Positions 3,499-19,961 are shown, counted from the first letter of the stretch. The stretch: 20,000 bases of DNA from an uncultured virus (IMG/VR IMGVR_UViG_3300047564_002075) (IMGVR_UViG_3300047564_002075); one strand, 5' to 3'. Program-made: numbers and translations. The notes: generated from the sequence alone by a model not told the origin.

Positions 3499-3553
3499 GT
3501 GTATTCTCCGTATTGTGTACGTATTTGGCCTTTGTGGTTTTGACCACCTAGTT

Positions 3554-3582
3554 ATCATACCACACCCCTAGGGGGCTGTCAA
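3554..3582 (-). promoter_or_regulatory. Sigma70-type early promoter for gp32
   Basis: TTGACA-N17-TATGAT on the - strand. Confidence 0.85.
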
Positions 3583-4492: not shown

Positions 4493-4493
4493 A

Positions 4494-6191: not shown

Positions 6192-6196
6192 AGTTT

Positions 6197-6433
6197 TTAA
6201 GCGTCAATAGTAGAACCGTAATGGTTTTGTTTAATGGTCTTGAGTTTCTCCTGTAATGGAGATGGAACTTTGTTCCTCCAATCTCCAACTTCACTAACAG
6301 CACTTGCAACACCTGCAGACCAGTCTTTATCCCAATCAGGATTATCTTTTCTCCACTGATCGTACTCTGCCATTGTCATGTAGAGTTCTTGTTTGTCACC
6401 AGTTTGTTTATTAATTACGGGATATGTGGGCAT
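6197..6433 (-). CDS. Conserved cyanophage hypothetical protein
   Basis: MPTYPV.N..TG...EL.M....YDQW.KDNPDW. Start at 6433 has a GGAGG RBS. Confidence 0.75.
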   Translation of the reverse strand: MPTYPVINKQTGDKQELYMTMAEYDQWRKDNPDWDKDWSAGVASAVSEVGDWRNKVPSPLQEKLKTIKQNHYGSTIDA

Positions 6434-6450
6434 TGGTTCCTCCTTTGTAT

Positions 6451-6960
6451 TTAGACCCATTCTGGTTTGCGTTGTGGCATTCTCAAGTAGTTATCTTTCA
6501 CCCATGGTTTGGATGCAATGTACTTTTTATATGCCGTGAAAGTATCTATACTCTTATCCAGTTTGAATTCATCTGGCATCGCACGAACAAAGGATGTTAC
6601 CTTTGTAATCTTACCTTTTGGAAACAGATAATATGCGGCAAGAAGAGTATTATAACATGAATGTGTTTTATTATAACGAATTGTATATTCATCACATAGG
6701 TTCATTCCATGTTTGATCAACCAGTATGCATTGTGAATTGACTCTGCAGCCCACTGTGTACATGGATGATTTCTAAATGCACCTTTGTCGGTTGCGTATG
6801 GAGTACCATCTGATTTTGGCAGAGTCCCATAATTATGATACCACTTGGATGCTACGATGCTAAGCATCTGACAGCACTCAAGTGGCATCTTTACAATATG
6901 TTTGTCTGGGAGAACTACCGCAGACTCTGCAGGAAACTCATTCGTGACAAAGATGTTCAT
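6451..6960 (-). CDS. Pyrimidine-dimer DNA glycosylase / endonuclease V-like protein
   Basis: MNIF......SA..L.DKH.VKM.LE..QMLS, NHPCT.W, L..EY..RY.K.H, AMPDE.K and R.P.W. Function inferred from family resemblance. Confidence 0.6.
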   Translation of the reverse strand: MNIFVTNEFPAESAVVLPDKHIVKMPLECCQMLSIVASKWYHNYGTLPKSDGTPYATDKGAFRNHPCTQWAAESIHNAYWLIKHGMNLCDEYTIRYNKTHSCYNTLLAAYYLFPKGKITKVTSFVRAMPDEFKLDKSIDTFTAYKKYIASKPWVKDNYLRMPQRKPEWV

Positions 6961-6982
6961 GGTCTAATGGTTCACTAGGAAC

Positions 6983-7012
6983 ATTATACCAGAGAAGCCC
7001 CTCACCAGTCAA
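6983..7012 (-). promoter_or_regulatory. Sigma70-type early promoter for the 6960 gene
   Basis: TTGACT-N18-TATAAT overlapping the end of thyX. Confidence 0.65.
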
Positions 7013-7637
7013 GGGCTTCTGCAACGGTTGGAAACTGTTCTTTAAACACCTTCTTGCAATCTTCTGCAATAATCATGTGTTCTTTCTGAGTTCCATTCTC
7101 ACTCCTCAGATTAATATAATGAATCCAAGAACGGCAACTGCCAGTCATATAGATACGAGTTGGAGTTGCAAGAGGAAGAACAAAGCGAGCACACTCTTTT
7201 GCAACACCATTCTCAATCAGATGGTTGTAGAGTGACATACCTTGTTCAAAGTATGTTGCAATCTGTTTCTGGGATAGTTCAATGAATGCAGGATCTAGAT
7301 CATCAATAGAGTTCTGACGATTCTTTGTATCTTGACGACGCAACTCTGGTACTGGAATAGTTGCATCCAAAAGGTTTGCATCAGCATACCTTTGTGAAAA
7401 CTCTTGAAATGTAAAACTTCTGTGTCGGAGTATTTGGGCTGCAATACCACGATTCGTTTCAATCTCCAGAGTCATAGAAGATTGTTCAAACACAGACCAA
7501 TGATTATGTTTAATGCAGTAACGAAGCAGACCAGCGTAGTTTTCATTTTCCTGATTAGCAGGATTGGAAACCCTGGCAATGTATGCCATAGTTTGTTCTG
7601 CATCAGGTGTAATAGAAATCAGTTTAACAGAACTCAT
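7002..7637 (-). CDS. thyX: Flavin-dependent thymidylate synthase
   Basis: ThyX signature RHRSFTFQEFSQRY, plus HWSVFE, AKECARFVLP and TQKEH. Confidence 0.97.
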   Translation of the reverse strand: MSSVKLISITPDAEQTMAYIARVSNPANQENENYAGLLRYCIKHNHWSVFEQSSMTLEIETNRGIAAQILRHRSFTFQEFSQRYADANLLDATIPVPELRRQDTKNRQNSIDDLDPAFIELSQKQIATYFEQGMSLYNHLIENGVAKECARFVLPLATPTRIYMTGSCRSWIHYINLRSENGTQKEHMIIAEDCKKVFKEQFPTVAEALDW

Positions 7638-7646
7638 AAAATAACC

Positions 7647-7901
7647 TCACTTTTTCTTTTTCTCTTTTGCTGGGTTCACCCAGAGTTTTGGATTTACTCT
7701 ACCTTCAGATTGTTTAAATGATTTTAAACCTTCACGATACCTATCCCAATAATAATCAAAAATTTCAATTTTGTTTCTTGGAATTATAAGGTCGTAACAA
7801 GTCACTCCATCATCCTCATATTCTACAATATAAGCTGTATAAGGTAAAGACCTGTCTTGTGCAAGACTAGGATCACATTTATGATGGAGTATTTGCATCA
7901 A
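7647..7901 (-). CDS. Conserved cyanophage hypothetical protein
   Basis: CDP..A.DR.LPY.AY.V.Y, IFDYYWD.Y and Q.EGR.NPKLW. Overlaps the upstream stop. Confidence 0.75.
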   Translation of the reverse strand: MMQILHHKCDPSLAQDRSLPYTAYIVEYEDDGVTCYDLIIPRNKIEIFDYYWDRYREGLKSFKQSEGRVNPKLWVNPAKEKKKK

Positions 7902-8353
7902 CTACGCCCTCCCCATTTAATTTCTGGATATGCTTCTTGAACACATGCTTTGGTAATTTTATATCTCTTACCAAGAGTCTTATCCTTTGTCATACAAACT
8001 ACTTCTGCTTCAGATTGGTGAAGTCCCTCCAGTAGTTGAATGAACATATTCTCTCTTTGAGATTGTCTCAGTCCATCATTACCACCCTTCACAAAGTTGT
8101 ACAGTTTTTTATACTCAAGAAAGAGAAGTGTGTGAGAAGTTCCTTCTGGAACATCATTAGCAGTATAAGGTACTTCCCCCTCAGGAACCATACTAACCAC
8201 ACTCTCATCAAAGTTCCAGATTAAGATAGACTGTAGTGCTGGACTCTTGTATTGATGAAGAAGAGCAATCTTTTCTTTTTTAGTTTTCGCGTTAGATACT
8301 TTCTGAAGCACCTCAGAAATTAGCATCTTTTCAACAGGTAAATTTGTAGCCAT
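7898..8353 (-). CDS. Conserved T4-like phage hypothetical protein
   Basis: LISEVLQKVSNAKTK.EK, LIWNFDESV.S..PEGEVPY and RE.MFIQ.LEGLH..EA. Immediately downstream of rnh. Confidence 0.8.
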   Translation of the reverse strand: MATNLPVEKMLISEVLQKVSNAKTKKEKIALLHQYKSPALQSILIWNFDESVVSMVPEGEVPYTANDVPEGTSHTLLFLEYKKLYNFVKGGNDGLRQSQRENMFIQLLEGLHQSEAEVVCMTKDKTLGKRYKITKACVQEAYPEIKWGGRS

Positions 8354-8354
8354 T

Positions 8355-9233
8355 TTAAAAATCCTCTATTTCATTCAGGAGTGATGTAAGTTTGTTGTTC
8401 AGAAAGTAATTCAATGTTACTTTCTTTTTTACAGAACTATTTAACAGTTCAAATTCTTCAACAATTTGATCTTCAATTTTTGAAGGAACGCAACTAAGAT
8501 CAATCAGACTTTTATTGCGTAGGTAGTTCTTGAGTTGATCTTGATTACAAAAAGTTTCTGGTTCGGAATTAATCCACTTGACTAGATTCTTTTTGCTGAT
8601 GGGTTTCTGTCTTTTACCAGAGACAAATGTATCATCGTCAGAGAGAAAGTTTGGAATACCATCACTCCGATCTCCCTTGATGATATGTTCCACCAAGTAT
8701 TGCTTTGGATCTTCAAACTTCACAAACTTTTTAAGAATAGGATTGTACTGTTTTACACAAGGATACTTACTCAGCTGAATAAAGTCTTTGTCACCAGACA
8801 AAATTAGAACTTTCTCAACTTGTTCTCCTATCTTCTGAAGTTTTGTGTTTTTGATTGCAGTGTGTTTGGACAGTACACTAATGATGTCATCAGCTTCTGC
8901 ACCATAAATTTCCATTACAATATATGGAAAGTGTTCCCTCAGTTCATCTCTAATTTTATTCAGGACTTCAAAGATCTTACTCCAATCATGAGTAGATTTT
9001 TCACGATCCTTCTTTCGGTTTTGTTTGTAGTGAGGGAACTTCTCCTTTCTCCAATAAAATTTGGAGTCATAACAAAGAACTAGTTGACCGTATTCTTCGG
9101 AGAAACTTTTCTTGTAGTGTTTGATAGAGTTAAGAACCATATGTCTAACTAGATTCTCATCAAGTCCATCACTCACTTTGATTTGCATCATCAAATTACT
9201 GATCATGCACTGATTCATATCAACGAGTATCAT
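8355..9233 (-). CDS. rnh: T4-type RNase H (FEN-like 5'-3' exonuclease)
   Basis: MILVD.NQ, YWR...FP.YK..RK, EADDII, ILSGDKDF.QL and GD.SDGIPN motifs. Confidence 0.95.
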   Translation of the reverse strand: MILVDMNQCMISNLMMQIKVSDGLDENLVRHMVLNSIKHYKKSFSEEYGQLVLCYDSKFYWRKEKFPHYKQNRKKDREKSTHDWSKIFEVLNKIRDELREHFPYIVMEIYGAEADDIISVLSKHTAIKNTKLQKIGEQVEKVLILSGDKDFIQLSKYPCVKQYNPILKKFVKFEDPKQYLVEHIIKGDRSDGIPNFLSDDDTFVSGKRQKPISKKNLVKWINSEPETFCNQDQLKNYLRNKSLIDLSCVPSKIEDQIVEEFELLNSSVKKKVTLNYFLNNKLTSLLNEIEDF

Positions 9234-9238
9234 AAAAA

Positions 9239-9472
9239 TTAATCCTCTTCGTATTCGTCCTCTTCCTCAATGAACCTTAGAGATAACAATTCTTCATTAA
9301 TCACATGACCTTCATCATCAAACATTTCTGGGTGATATGTTAGTTTTGCAGAAAAGTAGTTATTGAAATACTCATTAGCAAACCACCCAATCACCAGACC
9401 CATCACCAGACTTCCGAGACAGAATAAAAAACTAAAGAACAAAATTGAAACTACTGATGATAATTCTGTCAT
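9239..9472 (-). CDS. Small membrane protein, conserved cyanophage hypothetical
   Basis: N-terminal hydrophobic helix ending G.VIGW, HPEMFD..G motif, acidic tail, GGAG RBS. Confidence 0.75.
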   Translation of the reverse strand: MTELSSVVSILFFSFLFCLGSLVMGLVIGWFANEYFNNYFSAKLTYHPEMFDDEGHVINEELLSLRFIEEEDEYEED

Positions 9473-9491
9473 TGGTTTTTCTCCGAGTGTA

Positions 9492-9665
9492 CTAATCTTC
9501 CGTTGATACTAATACCTCCACTTTGTATCTTTTTCTAAGGAAAGAAAATACACGAAAAAGGTGGAGGACATATGGTTTTGTTTCCGGCGGAACGCCTACA
9601 GAACTTCCTCCACTTATCATTGCTTTTACATTATTATTTAGATACTTAGATGGTATTTGTGTCAT
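9492..9665 (-). CDS. 57-aa hypothetical protein absent from the ORF track
   Basis: MTQIPSKYLNNNVKAMISGGSSVGVPPETKPYVLHLFRVFSFLRKRYKVEVLVSTED. ATGA overlap with the upstream stop; fills the gap exactly. Confidence 0.65.
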   Translation of the reverse strand: MTQIPSKYLNNNVKAMISGGSSVGVPPETKPYVLHLFRVFSFLRKRYKVEVLVSTED

Positions 9666-10369
9666 CTAATAACCTTCAACAAAATAAAATTGGTGGAAAT
9701 AATTTTTGGTGGTGACTTGAGTTTGTTTGGAAGGGATGTGAAAATATTTTCAATGGTAAATTGATTTGAATCAATCAATGAATCTAGAGAGTCAGAAATC
9801 TTTTTAAGTTTCTTTGTTCCACTAGAAGAATCATAGTTGATAATCCTAGATCCTTTACAGGATAGATTCTTACCACTAAAAACTGTTACCTCTTCAGTCT
9901 TGACATTGTAGAAAATGATGTGCTTAGATCCTACAATCTCAGTCTTTGAGCAGGGGACGTATTCTTTCCCGTCTATTGTAACACAGGTATCCAGAAGATT
10001 CAAGCCCTTGACAATTTTCTCTGGGGTCTGTGGGCGTGGTTTCCTGGCAACCTTCTTAGATTCCTTGTACTTGGATGCATCCTGAATGATATCCGTCAAC
10101 ATCTGTTTGAATTCTCTAAGTTCTGGTTTTCTAAAACTAGAATAAGCTTCTTTTAGAATTAGGTCTTCACCACTCAAAGCACCATCAATCTCAACAATCT
10201 GATTCTCAATGTTTTCAATTCCGACTGTTAGGAATTCATTGATAGTTTTCCTATCAACATTCTCAGATTGAAGATATTTGAAAAAACTTGCTTTAGGTTT
10301 TCTCTTACTAAGTGCATATTCATCAACGAGAGTTTCTACAAAGTAGCAAATCTCATTTACTTTTTTCAT
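9662..10369 (-). CDS. Hypothetical protein (T4-like phage; L.EAYS motif, Lys-rich linker)
   Basis: 235-aa ORF, ATGA-coupled to glutaredoxin upstream and to the small ORF downstream. Confidence 0.75.
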   Translation of the reverse strand: MKKVNEICYFVETLVDEYALSKRKPKASFFKYLQSENVDRKTINEFLTVGIENIENQIVEIDGALSGEDLILKEAYSSFRKPELREFKQMLTDIIQDASKYKESKKVARKPRPQTPEKIVKGLNLLDTCVTIDGKEYVPCSKTEIVGSKHIIFYNVKTEEVTVFSGKNLSCKGSRIINYDSSSGTKKLKKISDSLDSLIDSNQFTIENIFTSLPNKLKSPPKIISTNFILLKVIR

Positions 10370-10602
10370 ACTAGGTTGTTCTCCTTCAAGTATTTAATAG
10401 TATCTGTACAACCTCCAATGTGTTCATCATTAACTATTACTTGAGGGAACGTGGATCCCCTACCAAACTCAGAATAAAATTCTTCTTTAGTGAAATGATC
10501 ATCTAAATCATACACAACATAATCAGCTTCTATAAGTTCAAGAACTTGTTTTACTTTACTGCAATATGGGCAATTGTTTTTAGAATAAACTGTAAATTTC
10601 AT
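10366..10602 (-). CDS. nrdC: Glutaredoxin (T4 NrdC-like)
   Basis: CPYC active site, TFPQV and IGGCTD. Start taken at MKFTVYSK. Confidence 0.92.
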   Translation of the reverse strand: MKFTVYSKNNCPYCSKVKQVLELIEADYVVYDLDDHFTKEEFYSEFGRGSTFPQVIVNDEHIGGCTDTIKYLKENNLV

Positions 10603-10939
10603 CTCTAATCTCAAACGATCGGTCTATACTTTGTGCTGTAAAATCTTGTGCATGTAATTTTCTACCAAGATAGATTGCTCCTTTTCTTGGATTTGGTTTA
10701 CCACAGGTAAAGATATCACACACTGCGGTTCCTTTTTCAGGCCAAGTGTGAATTGAAATATGAGATTCTGCAAGTAGTGTTACTGCAGTGACTCCCTGTG
10801 GATCAAATTTATGAGTAGTCGTTTTTAAAAACGTGGCCCCCATATGGTGTGTCGCTTCCCAAAGTATCTTACGAATATAATCTTCGTCATCTAGTAGGGA
10901 AGCCTGACAACCATATAGAGTAAACACAATATGTTTCAT
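10580..10939 (-). CDS. speD: S-adenosylmethionine decarboxylase proenzyme (pyruvoyl-dependent)
   Basis: F.PQGVT...LLAESHISIHTWPE.G.A..DIFTCG containing the E-S autocleavage site. Confidence 0.93.
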   Translation of the reverse strand: MKHIVFTLYGCQASLLDDEDYIRKILWEATHHMGATFLKTTTHKFDPQGVTAVTLLAESHISIHTWPEKGTAVCDIFTCGKPNPRKGAIYLGRKLHAQDFTAQSIDRSFEIRDEIYSLF

Positions 10940-10962
10940 CTAGTCAAGAGTAAAATTGTATA

Positions 10963-11208
10963 TTATTTATTGGGATCCATTTTGCGAATTTGGAATAGGT
11001 TACTCTTATAGTATTTACGTTTTTGTTTGATTAATTTTTTAATTGCTTCAAATCTTTCCTGTTCTAGTTCTCTTTCTTCTCTAGTCTTTACTGGTTGAGA
11101 TTCGGAAACAGTCACGGGAAGATCTACTTTTCTAACTTCCTCTTCAACAGTCTCTGATTGCACATCAATTACTTGTTCTTCCATCGGTTTGTTCATGCGA
11201 GTGGTCAT
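10963..11208 (-). CDS. Small charged hypothetical protein
   Basis: Acidic N-half and basic C-half. True start may be the second or third Met because the -10 box lies only 2 nt upstream of 11208. Confidence 0.6.
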   Translation of the reverse strand: MTTRMNKPMEEQVIDVQSETVEEEVRKVDLPVTVSESQPVKTREERELEQERFEAIKKLIKQKRKYYKSNLFQIRKMDPNK

Positions 11209-11308
11209 CTATTATACCAGGAGTCTTTGGTTTTTGCAAGGTGAATAGTTGAGGCCAAGTATCCCTGATAATTTCAACAAGTTTGTATGGGGTATCGTCG
11301 TTGATCAT
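11165..11308 (-). CDS. 47-aa small protein absent from the ORF track
   Basis: MINDDTPYKLVEIIRDTWPQLFTLQKPKTPGIIDDHSHEQTDGRTSN. The TPYKL.EIIRDTWPQL segment resembles a small ORF I recall from cyanomyoviruses. AATAAATA lies 19 nt upstream. Confidence 0.6.
   Translation of the reverse strand: MINDDTPYKLVEIIRDTWPQLFTLQKPKTPGIIDDHSHEQTDGRTSN
11211..11239 (-). promoter_or_regulatory. Sigma70-type promoter
   Basis: TTGCAA-N17-TATAAT on the - strand. Confidence 0.7.
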
Positions 11309-11327
11309 AATGTTTTAAATTTAACAG

Positions 11328-11345
11328 TATTTATTTTTATAAATA
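11328..11345. promoter_or_regulatory. Back-to-back late promoters
   Basis: AATAAATA on - (11328-11335) and perfect TATAAATA on + (11338-11345). The + site points into the inserted operon. Confidence 0.75.
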
Positions 11346-11350
11346 AACGT

Positions 11351-11582
11351 GGAGGAGAAATCCTTCAGTTAGAGATCAAGATGTATTACTAAAAGATTCC
11401 AGTAATGGCTCTTTCATTAATGCTTCAACTCTAATTGAATTACGATTCAATTTGAAATAGTAATAATCCCAGACGATTCACTCGTGTCGTCTGTGGCACC
11501 GATTCGTCTGGCATTATGTCAGGGACGGATTGGATCGTTTTCTCCTCTCCAAACAACATTCTTTTCCTTAAGGAGAAAACAA
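11351..11582 (+). ncRNA. Putative structured 5' leader (cis-regulatory RNA) of the + strand operon
   Basis: Pairings read directly: 11352-60/11539-47, 11364-74/11429-39, 11433-40/11445-52 (UACG loop), 11463-76/11504-17, and 11537-46/11571-80 (covers the RBS). Confidence 0.55.
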
Positions 11583-12377
11583 ATGGCAGATCAAGTTTAT
11601 GTTCCAGATCCATGGTCAATGCTCGCAGGACAGCATTCAGACATTCGTAGAGAAGGTTCTGTAGAGCGTGGCGAGATTCGTTACGACGTTGCTACTCGTG
11701 CCGCTGACAACCGTTATGCTAACGCTGTTGGTCAAGGCGAAATCAAGTATGCTATCGCTGAACATTCCGAATCAACCAACCGTGACATTCTAACCACTGG
11801 TTTTAATACTTCAGTCAAGGTAGATGAAGCTGCTGATAAGATTCAGCAAAGAGCTGCTGACTTCTATATTGCTTCTCAAGCAAGAGATTTTGATAACTCT
11901 CGTGACCTTGCTGCTCTCAGAGCATCTCAAGACCTTGCAGCTCAGAAACTCAGCACAGAGATTCTTCTTGCTACCGAGAAGACTGCTACTGCTCAGGCTC
12001 TTGAGTCAGCAAGACTTGGTGCTGCTGTAGCACTCGGACAATCACAGATCAGCAAGGAAATTGCTGAGAGCAAGTATGACCTCAGCAAGCAGGTTGCTTA
12101 TGAGAATGAGAAGACTCGTGATCTCATCAATTCACTCAAGAATGATGAACTCAATAGACTTCTCATTGAGCGCAACACTGATATCAATAGCCTCCGTGGA
12201 GATTATTGGGGTGTTAGAGATGGTCTGTTCAACAGCCAATTCGCTGCACTATCTTCACAAGTTAACTCTCAGTTAAACTCACTTAACAGTCAGATTGCTG
12301 AGACCCGTCAGGGCATGGTTAACTTCGGAACCATGGCTGGTGTAGGTCAGTCTTCAACCAGCAACGCTGTACGCTGA
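11583..12377 (+). CDS. 264-aa Ala/Ser/Gln-rich coiled-coil protein with 11-residue repeats and an N/Q/S-rich C-terminal motif; function unknown
   Basis: AAGGAG RBS before ATG 11583 (the ORF-track GTG start lies in the leader). Hendecad periodicity visible. No Cys and no evident signal peptide. Confidence 0.85.
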   Translation: MADQVYVPDPWSMLAGQHSDIRREGSVERGEIRYDVATRAADNRYANAVGQGEIKYAIAEHSESTNRDILTTGFNTSVKVDEAADKIQQRAADFYIASQARDFDNSRDLAALRASQDLAAQKLSTEILLATEKTATAQALESARLGAAVALGQSQISKEIAESKYDLSKQVAYENEKTRDLINSLKNDELNRLLIERNTDINSLRGDYWGVRDGLFNSQFAALSSQVNSQLNSLNSQIAETRQGMVNFGTMAGVGQSSTSNAVR

Positions 12378-12395
12378 TTTAGTTCAGTAGTTATT

Positions 12396-12419
12396 AAGGG
12401 GGAGATGACTCCCCCTTTT
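12396..12419 (+). terminator. Internal hairpin with short U-tract (probably a leaky terminator or stabiliser)
   Basis: AAGGGGGAG-ATGA-CTCCCCCTT with only four Ts in total. The GAGGAG RBS of the next gene follows. Confidence 0.7.
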
Positions 12420-12433
12420 AGAGGAGAATAACT

Positions 12434-13006
12434 ATGGACTCAGCAGAAAGAAGACTCATTGATTTATATAATCTTCTCGCACAGTATCAGAGAAGTAATG
12501 ACCCGAATCTAATGGAAAACATTCAGTCTGTTCGTGCCGAAATTACACAGATGCTGAATGCCCGTGCTGGTGGAAACGATAACATCAACATCGTCATAGA
12601 CGGTGGCGAGTGCCCAGATGAGTGTCCCCCAGGACCGCCTGGACCTCCAGGAGAACAAGGGCCACCAGGGCCGCAGGGCCCACCAGGAGAACCAGGAGAA
12701 TGCACCTGCAGGTGCAAAAGCATCCTGGTTTCTGAAGATTATACTGCTACTTGCGATGATTACTACATCGGTGTCAATAGTGACGGACCTGTTACTATTA
12801 CATTACCTGAAGACTGCACCGACTGTTGTGAGATTATCGTGAAAGCAGAAATGGGTCCACCATTGGGCAACAGAAAAATTACAGTCACTACATCAAACGC
12901 TGCTTTGATTGATGGTGAAGGTGATTACATTATCACCACACCATATGGAGCAGTCAACTTGATTTGTCGTGGACTTGATTGGTATATTATCTCAACAAAA
13001 CTATGA
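12434..13006 (+). CDS. Cys-flanked short collagen-like protein with a phage-fibre-type C-terminal beta domain
   Basis: Eight Gly-X-Y triplets between CPDEC and CTCRC, 10 Cys in total. C-terminal DYYIGV...TITLP...IDG...YG...W.II pattern. GAGGAG RBS. Confidence 0.85.
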   Translation: MDSAERRLIDLYNLLAQYQRSNDPNLMENIQSVRAEITQMLNARAGGNDNINIVIDGGECPDECPPGPPGPPGEQGPPGPQGPPGEPGECTCRCKSILVSEDYTATCDDYYIGVNSDGPVTITLPEDCTDCCEIIVKAEMGPPLGNRKITVTTSNAALIDGEGDYIITTPYGAVNLICRGLDWYIISTKL

Positions 13007-13785
13007 ACTTTAATATTAAACCATCTCTACCTGACATAAGAGATCACATTTATAGAAGTGACAGCACAGAAGTTCTCAGGGAATCTGTAGATCTTCGTGA
13101 GTGGGATACAATAGTTGAATCACAATATGATCTGGGCAGTTGTGCTGCAAATGCGCTCACAAATGCATACGAACTGTGCGTGAAACGCAACTACCCAGAA
13201 CATTTTACTCATCTCAGTAGACTGTTTATCTATTATAACACCCGGCTTGAACATGGTGATATTGAAAAAGATACTGGAATGTTTTTAAGAGATGGTCTTA
13301 AATCATTATCAAAGTATGGAGTGTGTTCTGAATTATTATGGCCATATGATCAAGAAAAATTTAATGATACACCATCTGATGAATGCTATGAGGATGCTAA
13401 GAAAAGAAAAATCATTAAGTATGAAAAATTAATTAGCACTTATTATATCACTCAAGTTTTGAATAACAACAAACCAGTTGTATTTGGTATGGAAATTTAC
13501 GAAAGTTTTATGGAACTAAATGATCGTATTTCTACTGTAAGTTTCCCTTCCAGAAAAGAGAAAAGTCTTGGAGGACATGGGATGTGTATGGTCGGATATA
13601 ATTTAAAGGAAAGACTGTTTTTAGCAAAGAATAGTTTTGGTCCTACTTGGGGAAACAACGGTTACTGTTGGATTCCTTTTGATTACATTAATCAGGAAGG
13701 ATACGACATTTGGACTTTTGATATACCCAACCAATTAGGAGAATCAAATGTATTATACGAGGCACTACTACCCATATTATCATAG
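13003..13785 (+). CDS. Papain-family (C1A) cysteine peptidase
   Basis: Q-x3-GSC (QYDLGSC), SRLFIYY, GGH...VGY and KNSFG..WG..GY: oxyanion Gln and Cys/His/Asn triad intact. Start at 13003 overlaps the upstream stop (ATGA). Confidence 0.93.
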   Translation: MNFNIKPSLPDIRDHIYRSDSTEVLRESVDLREWDTIVESQYDLGSCAANALTNAYELCVKRNYPEHFTHLSRLFIYYNTRLEHGDIEKDTGMFLRDGLKSLSKYGVCSELLWPYDQEKFNDTPSDECYEDAKKRKIIKYEKLISTYYITQVLNNNKPVVFGMEIYESFMELNDRISTVSFPSRKEKSLGGHGMCMVGYNLKERLFLAKNSFGPTWGNNGYCWIPFDYINQEGYDIWTFDIPNQLGESNVLYEALLPILS

Positions 13786-13885
13786 GAGATATTATGACTA
13801 CTATGACTATTACCGCTATGGGTGTCATCCTTATTATGATAGATATTGCCCTTATTACTCATATTATCCTTTCTATCCTTACTAA
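13748..13885 (+). CDS. 45-aa tyrosine-rich peptide (22 Tyr) absent from the ORF track
   Basis: MYYTRHYYPYYHRRYYDYYDYYRYGCHPYYDRYCPYYSYYPFYPY. AGGAG RBS at 13737-13741. Mixed TAT/TAC codons argue against a simple DNA repeat. Confidence 0.85.
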   Translation: MYYTRHYYPYYHRRYYDYYDYYRYGCHPYYDRYCPYYSYYPFYPY

Positions 13886-13899
13886 GTAGGAGATTCAAA

Positions 13900-14151
13900 A
13901 TGTATTACCGTTATCAGCCATATCCATACTACAGGAGATACTACAGTTTAGATCCTTATTATTATAGAAGGTACTACAATCCATACTACAATTATCAACA
14001 GAATATAGTTGATAGTCAAGTATCAGACATAGACCAAAGTATTAATAACTTTGGGGATATGACTGATGTGATTCAAGATGCTGATGTTTTTCAAGTAATG
14101 TCACCAGAACCAGAAGAACCTCAAGAACAATCTCGCCTGATTCTACCATAA
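13900..14151 (+). CDS. 83-aa protein: Tyr/Arg/Pro-rich N-terminus, Q/N/D-rich NFGxM motif, acidic tail
   Basis: AGGAG RBS at 13888-13892 supports the start at MYYRYQPYPYYRRYY rather than 13846. Confidence 0.85.
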   Translation: MYYRYQPYPYYRRYYSLDPYYYRRYYNPYYNYQQNIVDSQVSDIDQSINNFGDMTDVIQDADVFQVMSPEPEEPQEQSRLILP

Positions 14152-14186
14152 TAAAAAAGAGTGGCACTAGACCACTCTTTCTTTTT
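14152..14186. terminator. Bidirectional intrinsic terminator closing the + operon
   Basis: AAAGAGTGG (14156-64) / CCACTCTTT (14172-80) with A-run left and T-run right, between convergent genes. Confidence 0.85.
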
Positions 14187-14188
14187 AT

Positions 14189-14470
14189 TCAGTTTTCTTC
14201 TAGTTCTTCTACACAGTCTTGGAAATAAGTTTTCTCAAGTTCTTTTGATTGTTTTGTATCAACAAGAACCCATTCTTTTTTAATATCAAGATAGGATTCC
14301 CAAATAGGAACTCCTTCCGATTCCATTCTTCTATAGAGAATACCTTTATACGGTGTAAAGTATTGTCCAGAGAAGTTACGAGCAACTTGCAGTTTAGGAT
14401 TTTTTAGTTGCTCTAAAGTTTGTTGAAGATTTGCAATTTGTTCTTCAATTTGTTCAATAGTTAATGACAT
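14189..14470 (-). CDS. Hypothetical protein with short N-terminal coiled coil
   Basis: 93-aa ORF starting MSLTIEQIEEQIANLQQTLEQLK, tightly packed with its neighbours. Confidence 0.7.
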   Translation of the reverse strand: MSLTIEQIEEQIANLQQTLEQLKNPKLQVARNFSGQYFTPYKGILYRRMESEGVPIWESYLDIKKEWVLVDTKQSKELEKTYFQDCVEELEEN

Positions 14471-14475
14471 AATTT

Positions 14476-14658
14476 TTAAAAATTAATAGATGTACATGGA
14501 AATTTTTGTTTGATCATCATCTCATTGTGATGTTTCATTTCTGTTTGAAGTCTTGCGATGTTTACTACATTTACAGAAACAAAAGAAGTAATTGTTCCAA
14601 ACCATATCCACAATAATATTTGAAGTGTTCTGTGGATTTCTTTTTGTTTTTTGTCCAT
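14476..14658 (-). CDS. Small single-pass membrane protein
   Basis: Basic N-terminus followed by hydrophobic ILLWIWFGTITSFVSVNVVNI. Confidence 0.6.
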   Translation of the reverse strand: MDKKQKEIHRTLQILLWIWFGTITSFVSVNVVNIARLQTEMKHHNEMMIKQKFPCTSINF

Positions 14659-14659
14659 A

Positions 14660-15082
14660 TCAATTTACCATGGCATCAAAAAGATTCGGGGAGTCATTAG
14701 TTTCTTCATCTATAAAAAGTTCTACCAAATCAAGGAAATAATACTCCACTTCTTGCAGTCCACCAGAACATCCCATATCCCATGCTTTATTAAAAATTTT
14801 ATCTGCTTTTGGATGTCCTGTTATTTTATACTTGTCAATGAGATCTCTACGAAATTCATCTTGAAGTCTTTTGTTTTCTTCATGATAATGTTTTAAATGA
14901 GCATTATAGGAAACTTCATCTAAAACATATTCCTCTACACAGTTTTCAGGTGCTTGGAATTCATCATCAAATTGTCGTTTCATCCCTACCATTACTCCCT
15001 TTCGGTAATAGTAGATTGTCATGTAATCGTCTTTCTTTGGAATTGAAACAGAAGTCTTTTGATAATATGAAAGTGGTTTCAT
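14660..15082 (-). CDS. Hypothetical phage protein
   Basis: 140-aa ORF with F..DL......HPKADK.F..AW..G.S.G..EV...F..LVEL segment. First gene after an early-type promoter. Confidence 0.75.
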   Translation of the reverse strand: MKPLSYYQKTSVSIPKKDDYMTIYYYRKGVMVGMKRQFDDEFQAPENCVEEYVLDEVSYNAHLKHYHEENKRLQDEFRRDLIDKYKITGHPKADKIFNKAWDMGCSGGLQEVEYYFLDLVELFIDEETNDSPNLFDAMVN

Positions 15083-15148
15083 ATTTTTTTAATGTAAAGG
15101 GACACTAAGACTGAAGGGAATAATCACCACCCCCCTGTCTCGCGGCAG

Positions 15149-15177
15149 AGTATACCACTATATTTGCTATATCACAA
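15149..15177 (-). promoter_or_regulatory. Sigma70-type promoter for the 15082 gene cluster
   Basis: TTGTGA-N17-TATACT on the - strand. Confidence 0.55.
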
Positions 15178-15201
15178 GTACCCGATACTGGGTATATTCA
15201 T

Positions 15202-15256
15202 AGTGATGTATATCAGATGCAGAGTGATGTATATCAGATGCAGAATGATGCATATA
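15202..15256. repeat. Tandem 21-bp direct repeat (two perfect copies plus one partial)
   Basis: AGTGATGTATATCAGATGCAG at 15202-15222 and 15223-15243, then degenerate AATGATGCATATA. Confidence 0.9.
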
Positions 15257-15296
15257 ACCACATATAGATCTTGATTCCCTAACAGTTCATAGACAC

Positions 15297-15321
15297 AAAA
15301 AAAGAGTCCCGAAGGACTCTT
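15297..15321 (-). terminator. Intrinsic terminator after psbD
   Basis: On -: AAGAGTCC-TTCG-GGACTCTT followed by a T-run (UUCG tetraloop). Confidence 0.92.
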
Positions 15322-15328
15322 GAATGAT

Positions 15329-16390
15329 TTATAGAGCATTACCTCTCGGTAAGACCTCTTCTGGAAACACAAAGTTCTCATGAGGTTGATCTACTGGTGC
15401 CATCCAGGCACGCAGACCTTCATTAAGGAGGATATTCTTCGTATAGAAAGTTTCAAATTCAGGATCCTCCGCAGCACGAATCTCCTGAGAAACAAAGTCA
15501 TAAGCACGAAGGTTAAGGGCAAGACCAATAATACCGATACTGGAGGTCCAGAGACCCATAACAGGCACAAACAACATAAAGAAATGAAGCCAACGCTTGT
15601 TACTAAAAGCAATACCAAAAATCTGAGACCAATATCTATTAGCAGTGACCATAGAATACGTCTCTTCTTCTTGTGTTGGTTCAAAGGCTTTGAAAGTGTT
15701 TGCTTTTTCACCATCTTCGTAAAGAGTATTTTCAACTGTAGCGCCATGAATGGCACAGAGTAGTGCTCCTCCTAGAATACCAGCAACTCCCATCATATGA
15801 AAAGGATTAAGAGTCCAGTTGTGGAAACCCTGAAGGAACAGAAGGAACCTGAAGATTGCTGCGACTCCAAAGGATGGTGCAAAGAACCAACTGGATTGAC
15901 CCAGAGGGTACATCAGGAACACGCTGACGAATACAGCGATAGGACCAGAGAATGCGATTGCGTTATAAGGACGGATACCCACCAGGCGAGCAATCTCAAA
16001 CTGACGCAACATGAAACCTATAAGAGCGAAGGCTCCATGGAGCGCCACAAAAGGCCAGAGTCCCCCAAGTTGGAACCACCTGACGATATCTCCCTGAGCC
16101 TCAGGGCCCCAGAGAAGAAGAAGAGAATGACCCATAGAATCTGCTGGAGTACTAACTGCCGCAGTAAGAAAGTTTGCACCCTCAAGATAGCTGGATGCAA
16201 GGCCATGAGTGTACCAACTCGTAACGAAAGTTGTCCCAGTAAGCCAACCACCAAGAGCAAGATAAGCTGTGGGAAAAAGAAGAAGTCCAGACCAGCCAAC
16301 AAAAACGAAACGGTCTCTCTTAAGCCAGTCATCCAGTACATCAAACCATCCTCTCTGTGTAATTGGTTGTGAAAGTGTAGATGAAACCAT
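15329..16390 (-). CDS. psbD: Photosystem II D2 protein
   Basis: [22 protein letters not shown]...[10 protein letters not shown], full length, GGAGG RBS. Confidence 0.99.
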
Positions 16391-16402
16391 ATATAACCTC
16401 CG

Positions 16403-16431
16403 AAAAAGAAGGGGGATCCGAAGATCCCCCT
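16403..16431 (-). terminator. Hairpin/terminator between psbA and psbD
   Basis: On -: GGGGGATC-TTCG-GATCCCC(C) then TTCTTTTT. Confidence 0.85.
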
Positions 16432-16450
16432 GTAGTTTATTTTATCAAAC

Positions 16451-17530
16451 TCAACCGATTGCAGGTGCGGTGAGAGCAACAGGAGTGTTCTCTGCAGCAG
16501 CAAGGTCAAGAGGGAAGTTGTGAGCATTACGCTCGTGCATGACTTCCATACCAAGACCAGCACGGTTCAGAACATCAGCCCAAGTGTTGAGTACACGACC
16601 TTGTGAGTCAATGATGGACTGGTTGAAGTTGAAACCGTTGAGGTTGAAGGCCATCGTGGAAACACCAAGAGCAGTGAACCAGATACCAACTACAGGCCAT
16701 GCAGCAAGGAAGAAGTGCAGTGAACGAGAGTTGTTGAATGATGCATACTGGAAGATGAGACGACCGAAGTATCCATGAGCAGCAACGATGTTGTAGGTCT
16801 CTTCTTCTTGACCGAACTTGTAACCATAGTTCTGGGACTCATTCTCGGTGGTCTCCCTTACGAGCGAAGACGTGACCAGACTTCCGTGCATAGCACTAAA
16901 CAGACTGCCACCAAATACCCCAGCCACGCCAAGCATATGGAACGGATGCATAAGGATATTGTGTTCTGCTTGGAAGACGAGCATGTAGTTAAACGTTCCC
17001 GAGATTCCAAGAGGCATTCCATCGGAGAAGGAACCTTGACCGAAGGGATAAACAAGGAACACAGCAGTCGCAGCAGCCACGGGAGCAGAATAAGCAACGC
17101 AAATCCAAGGACGCATACCAAGACGGTATGAAAGTTCCCATTCGCGCCCCATGTAGCAGAAGACACCAATGAGGAAGTGGAAAACCACGAGTTGGTAAGG
17201 TCCGCCATTGTAGAGCCATTCATCAAGTGAAGAAGCTTCCCAGATGGGATAGAAGTGAAGTCCAATAGCATTGGACGAAGGAACAACAGCACCAGAGATG
17301 ATGTTGTTTCCATACATTAGAGAACCAGCAACAGGTTCACGAATCCCGTCAATGTCAACGGGTGGTGCAGCGACAAAGGCAACAATGAAACAAATAGCAG
17401 CTGCGAGTAGAGTTGGAATCATTAGAGTTCCGAACCAACCAACATAAAGACGATTGTTGGTTGAAGTGATCCACTCACAGAATTGTTCCCAAGTGTTGCC
17501 ACTTCGCTGTTGAGCGAGAGTTGCAGTCAT
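16451..17530 (-). CDS. psbA: Photosystem II D1 protein
   Basis: [34 protein letters not shown] plus C-terminal extension. Uninterrupted 359 aa. Confidence 0.99.
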
Positions 17531-17564
17531 AGTTAATACTCCGAGTAATTGGGGAAGTAAGTAT

Positions 17565-17592
17565 TGTTAAGGAATGTTTTGATTCCTTAACA
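17565..17592 (-). promoter_or_regulatory. Perfect 11-bp inverted repeat at the start of the psbA 5' UTR
   Basis: TGTTAAGGAAT (17565-75) / ATTCCTTAACA (17582-92) with a 6-nt loop. Confidence 0.7.
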
Positions 17593-17594
17593 TT

Positions 17595-17628
17595 TATTTA
17601 TAATACCACACCCTTGATCTGGTGTCAA
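17595..17628 (-). promoter_or_regulatory. Overlapping early (sigma70) and late promoters of psbA
   Basis: TTGACA(17628-23)-N17-TATTAT(17605-00) overlapping TATAAATA (17602-17595). Confidence 0.85.
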
Positions 17629-17639
17629 GGGGCCGGGAC

Positions 17640-17664
17640 AAAAAAACCTCCCCGAAGGGAGGTT
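17640..17664 (-). terminator. Intrinsic terminator after peroxiredoxin
   Basis: On -: AACCTCCC-TTCG-GGGAGGTT followed by a T-run. Confidence 0.9.
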
Positions 17665-17669
17665 GGTTA

Positions 17670-18191
17670 TCAGACGGTGGCGACTTCTCGCACAGTGGAT
17701 TTAACATATTCCAGAACTTTCTCTGGGGTGGTTTCACCATAAGGATCATCAGTTGCATCATCACGTTTGCCTGGTTCTTCAACCATCCATTCAATCTCTC
17801 CGTTATCTACTACAGCAGCATAACGCCAAGAACGAGAACCAAAACCAAGATTCAGTTTAGTCACTTCCATACCCATCAGACGAGTGAAAGAACCATTACC
17901 ATCTGGAATCAGTTGAACATTCTTAATACCTTGATCTTGTGCCCATGCATTCATTACAAATGCATCGTTCACAGAGATGCAGTAAATGGCATCAATACCC
18001 AGTGAATCAAACTGTTCATACATTTCTTCAAAACCAGGAAGTTGGTATGCAGAACATGTAGGAGTAAATGCACCAGGGAGGGAGAAGATAACCACACGCT
18101 TACCTTCAAACAGTTCGGTAGTATCGCGGGTTACAAACTCACCGTTTTCACGAAAAATAAATGAGACATTAGGAATTGTTTGTCGGGTCAT
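17670..18191 (-). CDS. Peroxiredoxin (type II / Prx5-like)
   Basis: LPGAFTPTCS, C.SVND.FVM.AW, PDGNG.FT and G.RSWRY motifs. Confidence 0.95.
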   Translation of the reverse strand: MTRQTIPNVSFIFRENGEFVTRDTTELFEGKRVVIFSLPGAFTPTCSAYQLPGFEEMYEQFDSLGIDAIYCISVNDAFVMNAWAQDQGIKNVQLIPDGNGSFTRLMGMEVTKLNLGFGSRSWRYAAVVDNGEIEWMVEEPGKRDDATDDPYGETTPEKVLEYVKSTVREVATV

Positions 18192-18447
18192 GTTTTTGTT
18201 TCAAATCAGGGTTAGGTTGTGAAGGAACTACAGGGTTCCTTGATTTATTTTTAATTACAATAAACGCATCAGATTGATACGTAACTGTTCCGAATGGTTT
18301 TGCCCATTTGGGATTTGCATCTGGGTGAGTGGCGGTTCCTGTTACAGCAACACCACCAATCTCAACAGATAATTCATCATTAGGATCCCAGTTTAATTCT
18401 TGTAGGGCAAGAGCAAATTGCCCCAGCATACCACCAGTGCTCACCAT
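18169..18447 (-). CDS. Conserved cyanophage hypothetical protein
   Basis: MLGQ...AL..L.W...D...V.IGG...G....N.KWAKP.G...YQ.DAFIVIKN..R.PV. Follows hli. Confidence 0.75.
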   Translation of the reverse strand: MVSTGGMLGQFALALQELNWDPNDELSVEIGGVAVTGTATHPDANPKWAKPFGTVTYQSDAFIVIKNKSRNPVVPSQPNPDLKQKHDPTNNS

Positions 18448-18560
18448 ACACCAGGAATGACTTGACCAGTGGCGAGATAAGCACCAACAGCGGCAACAAA
18501 ACCAAGCATGGCGAGACGACCATTCAGACGCTCAGCTTTTTCAGTAAAAATCTTGTCCAT
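18441..18560 (-). CDS. hli: High-light-inducible protein (39 aa, absent from the ORF track)
   Basis: MDKIFTEKAERLNGRLAMLGFVAAVGAYLATGQVIPGVW with AExxNGRxAMxG and TGQxxPG motifs. GAGGAG RBS. Confidence 0.95.
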   Translation of the reverse strand: MDKIFTEKAERLNGRLAMLGFVAAVGAYLATGQVIPGVW

Positions 18561-18571
18561 AGTTTTTCTCC

Positions 18572-18658
18572 TCAGTAAGTTTCAGAAAGTTGATTTACAG
18601 AATGTGCAAGAAGCACAAAGAAAGTTACACTAGTAAGTGTAAAAATTACTTCAGTCAT
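18572..18658 (-). CDS. 28-aa hydrophobic peptide between the two hli genes
   Basis: MTEVIFTLTSVTFFVLLAHSVNQLSETY. TGATG overlap with the upstream hli stop; its own stop overlaps the next RBS. Confidence 0.7.
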   Translation of the reverse strand: MTEVIFTLTSVTFFVLLAHSVNQLSETY

Positions 18659-18852
18659 CAGAAGACACCGAAGAAGAGCTTGCCAGTGATAGCATAAGAA
18701 ATGAACCCAGCAATAATACCGACCATAGCCCAACGTCCATTATAGGTCTCCTTGATTTCGTTTGGGGAATACATCCCATAGTTTTCATAATACATTGTAG
18801 GTTCTTTGGCCCACATATTTTGTTGACCGCGATCATTAGTTGTTACCGTCAT
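18658..18852 (-). CDS. hli: High-light-inducible protein with N-terminal extension
   Basis: E.YNGRWAMVG...SYAITGKLFFGVF and N-terminal GQQNMWAKEP segment. Confidence 0.92.
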   Translation of the reverse strand: MTVTTNDRGQQNMWAKEPTMYYENYGMYSPNEIKETYNGRWAMVGIIAGFISYAITGKLFFGVF

Positions 18853-18877
18853 TTCGTCTATTACGAATTGTTACAAT

Positions 18878-18906
18878 AGTATATATGAAAAAAGAGGGAC
18901 TGTCAA
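18878..18906 (-). promoter_or_regulatory. Sigma70-type promoter of the hli-hli-prx unit
   Basis: TTGACA-N17-TATACT. The -35 box lies in the loop of the upstream terminator. Confidence 0.85.
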
Positions 18907-18915
18907 GCCCCTCTT
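18888..18915 (-). terminator. Intrinsic terminator after the SLH outer-membrane protein gene
   Basis: AAGAGGG (18892-98) / CCCTCTT (18909-15) with a T-run on the - strand. Confidence 0.75.
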
Positions 18916-18937
18916 GTAAGGAAGTTCTGACAGATTA

Positions 18938-19819
18938 TCAGAACTTGAAACCAAGACCAGTGGTGAACACAGGCGAATAGGTTCCGTTAGAAGCACCATA
19001 GCTGTTAGCAGCATTGGTGGTAGGGAACTTCAGATCAGCGAAACCAACGAGAGAGTTGGTGATGCGACCTTCCACACCAAGAGCAAGAACAACTTGACCA
19101 CGATTTCCTACAGCAGACTGGTAGTTTGCTTGAGTATCATTGGTGAAAGGAACTTGATAACCAACACCAGTATAGATGTTAGCACGACTTACACCAGAAG
19201 CAGCACGGGAGATACTCCAATCATAAGAAACAAGAGCACCACCAGCAGTACCGATATTGCTGTTAGGACCAGCAACTGCATTCAGGTAAGGACGGAGAGA
19301 AACAGCATTCTGATTGCTGAAGTTCTTTACAGCATAACGTGCTTGAAGAGTAGCACCAGAGATGGTGCGGTCAGAGGTATAACCACCACCATTAACACCT
19401 TGCTTGTTTAGAAGAACACCAAGACCGAGATAGTTACCAACGCCTTGTGCTTTCTGAGCGGCAGCAACTTCAAGAGCAGTTACACGGGTGTTTGTAGCAG
19501 AAAGTTCCTTAGCAAATTCTGCACGAAGAGCAGCAGCGAGTTGTGCATCTGCAGCAGTTTGGAACTCAGCAATACGATCAAGACAAGCGTTAGTCAGAGC
19601 AGCCAGTTCGGCACGAGTGGCAGGTTGACCAGGCTGGAAAGTACCGTTTGGATAACCAGCAACACAACCATAACGAGAAATTAGGTTGGAGATTGCCTGA
19701 TAGGACCACTCAGTAGGTTGAACATCACGCAGTTGCGAAACACTGGTGACTTGTGCCATAGCGGGGGCAGCAATAGAAGCTGCAGCAACACCAGCGGCAA
19801 TAAACGAACGAATCATCAT
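18938..19819 (-). CDS. SLH-domain outer-membrane protein (cyanobacterial porin-type N-terminus plus short beta-barrel)
   Basis: Signal peptide ending APAMA, then QVTSVSQL.DVQPT.W.YQA..NL..RYGCVAGYP.GTF...TR.E.AA..NACLD, a coiled coil, amphipathic beta strands and terminal GLGFKF. Confidence 0.85.
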   Translation of the reverse strand: MMIRSFIAAGVAAASIAAPAMAQVTSVSQLRDVQPTEWSYQAISNLISRYGCVAGYPNGTFQPGQPATRAELAALTNACLDRIAEFQTAADAQLAAALRAEFAKELSATNTRVTALEVAAAQKAQGVGNYLGLGVLLNKQGVNGGGYTSDRTISGATLQARYAVKNFSNQNAVSLRPYLNAVAGPNSNIGTAGGALVSYDWSISRAASGVSRANIYTGVGYQVPFTNDTQANYQSAVGNRGQVVLALGVEGRITNSLVGFADLKFPTTNAANSYGASNGTYSPVFTTGLGFKF

Positions 19820-19845: not shown

Positions 19846-19853
19846 TATTTATA
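19846..19853 (-). promoter_or_regulatory. Late promoter (TATAAATA) upstream of the SLH protein gene
   Basis: Exact match 26 nt upstream of the start codon. Confidence 0.7.
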
Positions 19854-19878: not shown

Positions 19879-19961
19879 TGTCGGTAAGAGGACTTGAACC
19901 TCCACGTCATAAAGACACTGGAACCTAAACCCAGCGCGTCTACCAATTCCGCCATACCGAC
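19879..19961 (-). tRNA. trnL: tRNA-Leu (anticodon UAG), CCA not encoded
   Basis: GTCGGTA/TACCGAC acceptor stem, D-arm TGGCGGAATTGGTAGACGC, anticodon arm CTGGG-TTTAGGT-TCCAG, long variable arm, T-arm GGTTCAAGTCC. Confidence 0.97.

Follow-up and report, generated by a model that had tools for sequence, protein, structure and literature searches.

The 20,000-nucleotide (nt) stretch of DNA from the uncultured virus IMGVR_UViG_3300047564_002075 (IMG/VR), referred to below as the window, carries a cassette of five + strand genes, G1 to G5, which encode a rod protein, a collagen-like fibre protein, a cysteine peptidase and two tyrosine-rich small proteins. We interpret the cassette as a module, portable among large T4-like phages, for an accessory fibre whose components are carried on the virus particle, and assign this reading a probability of about 0.52. 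An appendage of this kind fits the fold at the end of the collagen-like protein, the swapped fibre tips of relatives, the T4-type late promoter motif, the cysteine staples and the absence of export signals. The original prediction, made from the nucleotide sequence, had described the same genes as a late-expressed, cross-linkable fibre, coat or matrix system; its conserved unit behind a T4-type late motif stands, whereas its free matrix or coat is now considered unlikely. The elements of the cassette, with the evidence used to define each, are as follows.

11338..11345, + strand: T4-type late promoter motif TATAAATA (motif count, alignment of relatives).
11361..11544 (184 nt), + strand: structured RNA that forms the 5' leader of the rod gene and matches no Rfam family (covariance model R1).
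11583..12377, + strand: G1, a 264-residue rod protein modelled as a single long helix; its register is of 11 residues, and its C-terminal tail, at about residues 241-264, is near-invariant (AlphaFold2, alignment).
12396..12417, + strand: G+C-rich hairpin in the spacer between G1 and G2, with a T run behind it (-16.2 kcal/mol, relatives).
12434..13006, + strand: G2, a 190-residue collagen-like fibre protein (sequence, model, fold search).
13003..13785, + strand: G3, a 260-residue xylellain-type C1A cysteine peptidase (PF00112, 3OIS).
13748..13885, + strand: G4, a 45-residue protein with 49% Tyr and two conserved Cys (overlaps the end of G3; conserved).
13900..14151, + strand: G5, an 83-residue Tyr-rich protein with a copy of the G1 tail motif (hhalign, codon-position differences).
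14156..14180, both strands: hairpin terminator shared with the convergent - strand gene at 14189-14470 (folding).

The cassette is conserved as a unit. Scans of IMG/VR return 53 loci with G1 and 14 loci with G3, which after removal of duplicates leave the window and 38 further loci, 39 non-redundant sources that are all uncultured large phages. The collagen gene follows the rod gene in 36 of the 39, with one extra open reading frame (ORF) between the two in five; the other three loci end no more than about 650 bases past the rod gene, and tblastn finds the start of a G2-like gene in each of them. Homologues scattered without synteny had been named beforehand as an outcome that would speak against a joint function, and the relatives instead keep their order. 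The other members of the cassette are distributed more variably. Of the sources, 27 have a second fibre gene, whose product shares the end domain and has a conserved N-terminus (the window is without one); Tyr-rich genes are present in at least 25, the protease gene in 22, a gene for a LuxR/GerE regulator directly upstream in 14 and one for a helical-acidic protein in eight. The T4 Gp23 capsid protein is encoded by four of the five cassette host records tested, the fifth being estimated as 68% complete.

Deposited genomes present a different picture. Among 50,697 phage genome records, blastn with the whole cassette and tblastn with G1, G2 and the second fibre find nothing; only G3 has relatives there, in 13 records and all distant (best 35.6% identity, in a 595-kb uncultured phage), and in Burkholderia phage FLC9 the protease gene stands alone. 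Two patterns for the G1 tail match 153 stretches in 185,579 prokaryote species genomes, none of which is a relative, within the limits of a search by these patterns. No description of the cassette was found in the literature on phage collagen-like, Tyr-rich, papain-like and hendecad coiled-coil proteins, and the earlier statement that no phage system of this composition had been described is in agreement with both searches.

Several relatives show further variation in cassette content. In a 239-kb record (L043:7215-9261) the cassette holds four extra fibre-type genes with different end domains, one of them a decayed collagen gene. In five loci (L008, L012, L020, L022 and L023; for example L012:9280-9702) the Tyr-rich genes are followed by a DUF7201 gene (E 3.2e-26) that is not in the window; its product has 140 residues, with a coiled coil and a C-terminal membrane helix, and matches a holin PHROG weakly (E 8.5e-4). 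The rod gene at L030:4799-5503 is only 45% identical to that of the window, against 77% for the collagen end domain and the protease of the same locus, a mosaic that suggests recombination inside the cassette.

The structure of G2 contributes most to the choice between an appendage and a free material. Its model consists of a helical hairpin (residues 3-44), a G-X-Y region (64-90) that has no regular structure in the monomer, and a beta-sandwich (95-189) that is modelled with confidence, the predicted local distance difference test score (pLDDT) being mostly above 90. The eight uninterrupted G-X-Y triplets at 65-88 (5-24 in relatives) are preceded by cysteines 60 and 64 and followed by cysteines 90, 92 and 94, out of 10 Cys in total, as expected of the Cys-flanked mini-collagen that had been predicted. 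The Pfam Collagen family PF01391 scores 21.5 bits, under its gathering score of 27.2, with a run that is shorter than the 60-position model. Over residues 93-190 no Pfam family is found at E up to 0.1. The best PHROG is the tail collar protein phrog_3449 (E 9.9e-8, residues 52-160), and a profile search of the PDB with G2 returns collagen stretches only, with BclA (1wck) matched only at G-X-Y profile positions 64-109.

The C-terminal domain (residues 93-190, about 98 residues) was then compared by fold, using Foldseek and an independent all-against-all aligner (VIA-align), which put the same chains first. Foldseek lists the Solidus gp83 tailspike (E 1.7e-6), the KP1 baseplate (2.5e-6), CBA120 TSP4-N (8.1e-6), the Pa223 capsid spike (6.7e-5), the T4 baseplate 5iv5 (1.5e-3) and T4 gp9 (3e-3), with both gp10 and gp9 chains of the T4 baseplate appearing in the list. 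VIA-align gives leading Z scores of 12.6, 12.3, 11.9, 11.8 and 10.6 over 86-95 residues, the next unrelated rows having Z of about 7; here the order is the tailspike of Acinetobacter phage Solidus (12.6), CBA120 TSP4-N (12.3), the baseplate of Klebsiella phage KP1 (11.9) and the Pa223 capsid spike (10.6), after which come CpaA (9.2) and StcE (7.7). PMC8825819 describes the XD1 domain of TSP4 as a 4+5-stranded sandwich that is closest to T4 gp9, and views it as a spacer within trimeric adaptors. The G2 domain is matched by at least 477 viral models of BFVD at E up to 0.001, and these include proteins named baseplate Gp9/Gp10, tail fiber and minor tail as well as collagen-repeat proteins of phages and giant viruses. 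Because its end domain matches fibre, baseplate and collagen-repeat models of phages and giant viruses, G2 is, as modelled, a common kind of viral fibre protein. No longer proteins with the G2 end domain were found, which is weak evidence.

The XD1 fold of this domain points to a virion appendage rather than to a free matrix. The sandwich is also 38-77% identical to that of the window where the rod falls to 45% or below, and we read this degree of conservation as the likely mark of a contact or docking surface and not of a fast-evolving receptor tip. Second-fibre genes of relatives carry different tips (L043, L050), and such swapping would fit genes for host recognition. The free matrix or coat had been proposed from composition, and both the recognisable G2 fold and the swapped tips fit an appendage better.

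G1 is modelled by AlphaFold2, from an alignment of 29 sequences, as a single helix from residue 10 to residue 248 with a disordered tail (mean pLDDT 80.2; predicted template-modelling score 0.27). The same alignment contains 11-residue insertions in the N-terminal third and a conserved helix stretch at about residues 178-198. Lengths are multiples of 11 in 65 of 104 full-length-looking relatives, in eight classes from 242 to 319 residues. The hydropathy spectrum peaks at 5.44 residues with a power of 81 (shuffle mean 51.5, maximum 105.5), which is not significant alone; the predicted hendecad coiled coil, already named in the original prediction, is supported better by the 11-step length classes than by this spectrum. 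The family is large, with 963 relatives at E up to 0.001, none of which among the 120 listed has a name or a Pfam domain. At 50% identity it forms 171 clusters within a set of 1.84 billion representatives, and in nearly all of these clusters the match extends to the last residue. G1 has no relative in Pfam or NCBIfam, its best E is 0.092 in PHROGs and 0.0034 among PDB sequences (a coiled-coil design), and the ESM Atlas returns only viral clusters without names. Three distant members of the family (P0220, P0241 and P0257) are about 390 residues long, with a hydrophobic segment resembling a Gly zipper before the helix and a variant tail (IVNLGTM), and belong to no Pfam or PHROG family.

The tail of G1, with the consensus TRQGMVNFGTMAGVGQSSTSNNVR, is invariant or nearly so even where the remainder of the protein is only 31-45% identical, and it recurs in G5. 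Taken as a profile, the last 45 residues of G1 match the middle of the G5 family with an hhalign probability of 96.9% (E 1.9e-10), so that G1 232-264 corresponds to G5 34-67; in G5 this copy lies between a Tyr/Arg/Pro-rich N-terminal third and an acidic Pro-rich end. Five records, including two complete genomes, have the motif nowhere but in the rod gene and, where the cassette is of the cyanophage type, in that of G5. A 93-residue Tyr/Arg-rich protein (P0228) has a tail that is almost that of G1. Since G1 and G5 carry the same conserved peg, they would be expected to dock to the same partner, for which the conserved G2 sandwich is our guess.

Both tyrosine-rich products are under coding constraint. 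G4 has 22 Tyr in 45 residues and G5 has 16 in 83, and across nine relatives the differences at third codon positions outnumber those at the other two (586 versus 289 and 203 for G4; 1171 versus 615 and 449 for G5), which is why both are taken as real genes, as had been proposed for two very Tyr-rich small proteins. G5 has no usable match in the ESM Atlas.

G3 matches Pfam PF00112 (Peptidase_C1) with 51.6 bits (E 1.7e-13), over the cut-off of 20.7. Among solved structures, PDB 3OIS is the nearest to it (E 1.8e-37 over residues 5-238); the catalytic set Gln41, Cys47, His192 and Asn210 aligns with 3OIS, and the intact C1A protease that had been predicted is thus in place. Residue 5 of G3 aligns to residue 35 of 3OIS, which makes G3 about 30 residues shorter at the N-terminal (pro-region) end. 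PMC5542433 identifies 3OIS as xylellain, and PMC10380794 describes short xylellain-type C1A peptidases acquired by myoviruses, siphoviruses and giant viruses. An enzyme of the G3 type is therefore already known in phages, and its place in this cassette is not. The catalytic set is intact in 18 of the 22 family members, the other four being truncated ORFs without the Cys region. Because the gene is so often lost (absent from 17 of 39 sources and broken in four more), we take G3 to be an optional predicted peptidase, which cannot serve an essential maturation step.

The layout of the cassette agrees with the description given in advance. With ORFs of at least 60 residues accepted as genes, - strand genes occupy 2584-11208 and 14189-19819, and the five + strand genes (11583-14151) form an island between them. 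The start of G1 is taken as the ATG at 11583, which has an AAGGAG site and is the start shared with relatives, the listed ORF beginning at a GTG at 11484. G2 is preceded by GAGGAG, and G4 and G5 by TAGGAG; G3 has no ribosome site of its own, and its ATG overlaps the G2 stop (ATGA) in a coupled start. No signal peptide or membrane helix is indicated in the cassette proteins, in which the highest 19-residue mean hydropathy is 0.72.

The promoter motif TATAAATA that bounds the island upstream is present at four places in the window against 0.98 expected, a number reached in 4 of 200 shuffles. All four copies point at a gene start 26-238 nt downstream (gp48, G1, psbA and the gene for a protein with an SLH domain), and the one at 540 overlaps the opening codons of an ORF that runs divergently. 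At the position of the cassette promoter, all nine aligned relatives that cover it have [TC]TAAATA. The window encodes a gp33-type late transcription factor at 4494-4850 (phrog_254, E 1.5e-31), and a gp55 gene is not within its 20 kb. Judging from the promoter motif, the cassette would be transcribed late.

The 238 bases from the promoter motif to the G1 start are conserved above the genes, and they fold. The leader covariance model R1, built on 11 sequences, matches the + strand just 5' of the rod gene in 15 distinct loci, four of which lie outside model building, and has no match in the distant loci. In the 15-sequence alignment, which was fitted to R1 and so favours the structure, 95.8% of cells are paired, against 35-46% in slid controls, and 17 pairs show two-sided changes, against 8.6 in shuffles (0 of 500 reach 17). 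No Rfam family matches the leader at E up to 1. The element has a single occurrence in a complete 258-kb genome and is found only with cyanophage-type cassettes. A mini-ORF within it (ATG TAT TAC TAA, Met-Tyr-Tyr; 11382-11393), which stands behind GGAGGAG, was considered as a leader peptide and rejected: its ATG is ACG in two of 11 relatives and the mini-ORF lies inside a conserved stem, for which reason the segment is assigned to the RNA structure.

Two hairpins complete the transcription unit. The one between G1 and G2 is kept in all 13 aligned relatives, with stem sequence changes on both sides, and is probably an attenuator or a stabiliser of the mRNA 3' end; in either role it should raise the abundance or stability of the G1 message over the rest. 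The one after G5, which a terminator scan flagged on the + strand only, folds on both strands when computed separately (-12.4 and -17.6 kcal/mol; z -4.2 and -4.3) with a U run after each, as the proposed bidirectional terminator requires.

Control probably differs in a number of distant cassettes. The LuxR/GerE-family regulator gene found directly 5' of the rod gene belongs to 14 of them (L035-L051; for example L038:5101-5865 and L037:4921-5796). These regulators score 58.5-62.1 bits for the GerE helix-turn-helix (Pfam cut-off 23.5), and their best NCBIfam model is CsgD with 72.4 bits, far under its cut-off of 250. The pattern NATAAATA is not found within 260 nt of the rod gene in any of the 14 regulator-bearing cassettes, L049 having only a variant of it (CTAAATA); TATAAATA does occur in three further distant loci (L031, L032 and L034).

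The analysis shows which genes are present, how they are conserved and ordered, the folds of their products, the motif that two of them share and the RNA elements around them; from these we infer a model that supplies the attachment to the particle, the binding partners, the timing and any cross-linking. In this model G1 would form a rod of about 35 nm, probably a multi-stranded coiled coil whose length is tuned in 11-residue steps. G2 would form a short trimeric collagen-like fibre, with the cysteine clusters at both ends of the triple helix acting as staples and the gp9/gp10-type sandwich as its terminal domain; the second fibre gene of relatives would add the same sandwich or swapped tips. 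The G1 tail and its copy in G5 would serve as docking pegs for one common, conserved partner, G4 and G5 would contribute sticky Tyr/Arg/Pro segments, and the xylellain-type protease would be an optional extra, either for trimming or as an enzyme acting on the host surface. Since the cassette proteins are without export signals, they would be put together in the cytoplasm and released along with the particle when the cell lyses, and their cysteines may then oxidise.

Several observations weigh against this fibre module or are left unexplained by it. The cassette is far from the capsid gene in all three records where both are placed, and in the window it sits among auxiliary genes. No cassette protein has been seen in a particle, the carriers of G1, G2 and the second fibre being all uncultured and without a proteome. 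Which protein the tail motif docks to is a guess. In 14 distant versions the late motif is lacking and a dedicated LuxR/GerE regulator is present, an arrangement not usual for structural genes. An excess of G1 over G2, as suggested by the conserved hairpin behind G1, would fit a polymer or a chaperone equally, and the extreme Tyr content has no evident place in an appendage. Two secreted proteases, CpaA and StcE, also have the XD1 fold, in modules that bind glycans (PMC8825819). On account of the location, the private regulators, the G1 excess and the Tyr content, roles for G1 as a polymer or as a helper stay alive.

The best placed of the rival explanations, though an unlikely one, is a free late polymer (matrix, coat or tether) that is made off the particle, with G1 as the bulk subunit and the collagen-like and Tyr-rich proteins cross-linked after lysis. 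The cross-linking by dityrosine that the composition would suggest (49% Tyr in G4, with 10 Cys in G2) finds no oxidase or peroxidase within the cassette in any of the 39 sources, and the sole recognisable fold belongs to proteins of baseplates, tailspikes and capsid spikes. A surplus of G1 and the location away from structural genes would suit such a polymer, as would the docking motif, which occurs in no other gene of two complete genomes; the swapped fibre tips of relatives fit host recognition instead. The best NCBIfam match of the distant regulators is to the regulator of curli, far under cut-off, and counts in favour of a polymer, whereas the resemblance to spore coats is compositional only, with the BclA profile match confined to the collagen stretch.

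A related and improbable alternative is a self-contained filament system, a phage-made hair or extracellular polymer of a kind undescribed for any virus. Here G1 rods would join end to end or bundle by way of the tail peg, with trimers of the collagen-knob protein as tips and with the Tyr-rich proteins, which carry the same peg, as caps, anchors or glue. The leader RNA of cyanophages and the CsgD-like regulator of other large phages would then be a private control layer. If true, this alternative would represent a new kind of virus-made polymer.

Held to be similarly improbable is a role for G1 in helping the trimeric collagen and fibre proteins to assemble, either by scaffolding or in the manner of the T4 chaperone gp57A; only the proteins so helped would then be on the particle. 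The folding of T4 fibres requires a small helical chaperone, and G1 is always paired with the collagen gene, is modelled as all-helical without a globular domain and is probably over-expressed relative to the genes downstream. Length steps of 11 residues (242-319) and a continuous helix of 239 residues have no obvious use in a helper, however, and the near-invariant tail with its copy in G5 looks like a structural docking peg. Very improbable is a host-directed cassette, a protease-centred module that would lyse the host or degrade its envelope or proteins and would be targeted by the fibre-like proteins: the catalytic set of G3 is intact in the window, Alicyclobacillus phage MMB025 has a 28%-identical G3 relative with an endolysin annotation, and the DUF7201 gene after the cassette in five relatives has its weak holin match, but the protease is missing or truncated in many sources while G1 and G2 are always kept, no cassette protein has a membrane segment, and C1A peptidases are not known as cell-wall hydrolases.

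The window itself derives from a T4-like cyanomyovirus. Its flank at 7000-11300 matches 451 phage records at 60-80% identity, whose organism names begin mostly with Synechococcus (332), Cyanophage (61) or Prochlorococcus (22), and the closest record to the window is a 32-kb fragment (G001). Four runs from two samples, labelled freshwater metagenomes, contain 63-80% of the sequence words of the window, and no RNA runs containing 11300-14200 were found. PHROG and Pfam scans identify genes for the head closure protein gp4, gp48, gp53, gp32, gp59 and gp33, together with PhoH, thymidylate synthase, RNase H, glutaredoxin, SpeD, psbD, psbA, peroxiredoxin and the SLH-domain protein. The last is a 293-residue product of 18938-19819 (- strand; PF00395, E 3.9e-11, no PHROG match) that is unusual for a cyanophage, and a TATAAATA copy at 19846-19853 (- strand) stands 26 nt 5' of its gene. 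Another perfect TATAAATA, at 17595-17602 (- strand), lies 64 nt 5' of psbA (16451-17530, - strand). A tRNA-Leu gene with anticodon TAG (ARAGORN; Rfam tRNA 53.5 bits) is located at 19879-19961 on the - strand, and the spacer 5' of psbD contains a 21-bp tandem repeat (15202-15255, 2.6 copies, 93% matches).

If the fibre module is correctly identified, its consequences concern attachment, since extra fibres decide what a phage attaches to and would affect host range and the way in which cyanophages of lakes encounter cells or particles. The module is common in uncultured freshwater T4-like phages and yet occurs in none of the 50,697 genomes searched, which indicates that culture collections miss it. 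It adds two protein families without a described relative, the rod with its 11-residue register and the Tyr-rich peg proteins, and a short putative docking motif that is common to the neighbouring genes G1 and G5. The new structured leader RNA offers a ligand or partner to seek.

Among known systems, the spore coat and exosporium (BclA, CotC/CotU, YabG) and the cnidarian minicollagens resemble the cassette in composition only, through collagen, Cys-rich and Tyr-rich proteins and a cysteine protease; the G2 end domain ranks with phage XD1 domains and not with BclA, and Pfam and NCBIfam give no coat-protein homology for the cassette. For G3 the nearest solved relative is xylellain, the C1A peptidase of Xylella fastidiosa, from which it differs by the shorter N-terminal end. 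The closest structural counterparts of G2 are T4 gp9 and gp10 and the XD1 domain of CBA120 TSP4-N (7REJ/7RFV): G2 93-190 superposes on TSP4 79-179 with Z 12.3 and a root-mean-square deviation of 2.2 A over 95 residues, and the ranking of its look-alikes (gp9, CpaA, StcE) equals the XD1 list in PMC8825819. In G2, however, the sandwich is the C-terminal end of a 190-residue protein and not an internal spacer of a large tailspike, there is no anchor domain or enzymatic body, and identity to these proteins is 14-24%, with none of their Pfam or PHROG families matched.

T4 fibritin (wac), a late trimeric coiled-coil whisker with an all-helical rod and a short conserved C-terminal element, resembles G1. 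The two differ in that no sequence similarity was found, G1 having no Pfam match, in that its register is of 11 and not 7 residues, and in that its tail is modelled as disordered and not as a foldon. Collagen-like fibre proteins, of which PRD1 P5 and the BclA-type fibres are examples, share the plan of G2 in phages and giant viruses, in which a C-terminal beta domain comes after a short stretch of G-X-Y, and several collagen-repeat proteins in BFVD from uncultured tailed phages, Klosneuvirus and Pithovirus have the same C-terminal fold (E about 1e-8). G2 is set apart from these fibres by having only eight triplets, Cys clusters at both ends of the run and an N-terminal helical hairpin, and by a gene that always adjoins the G1 rod gene.

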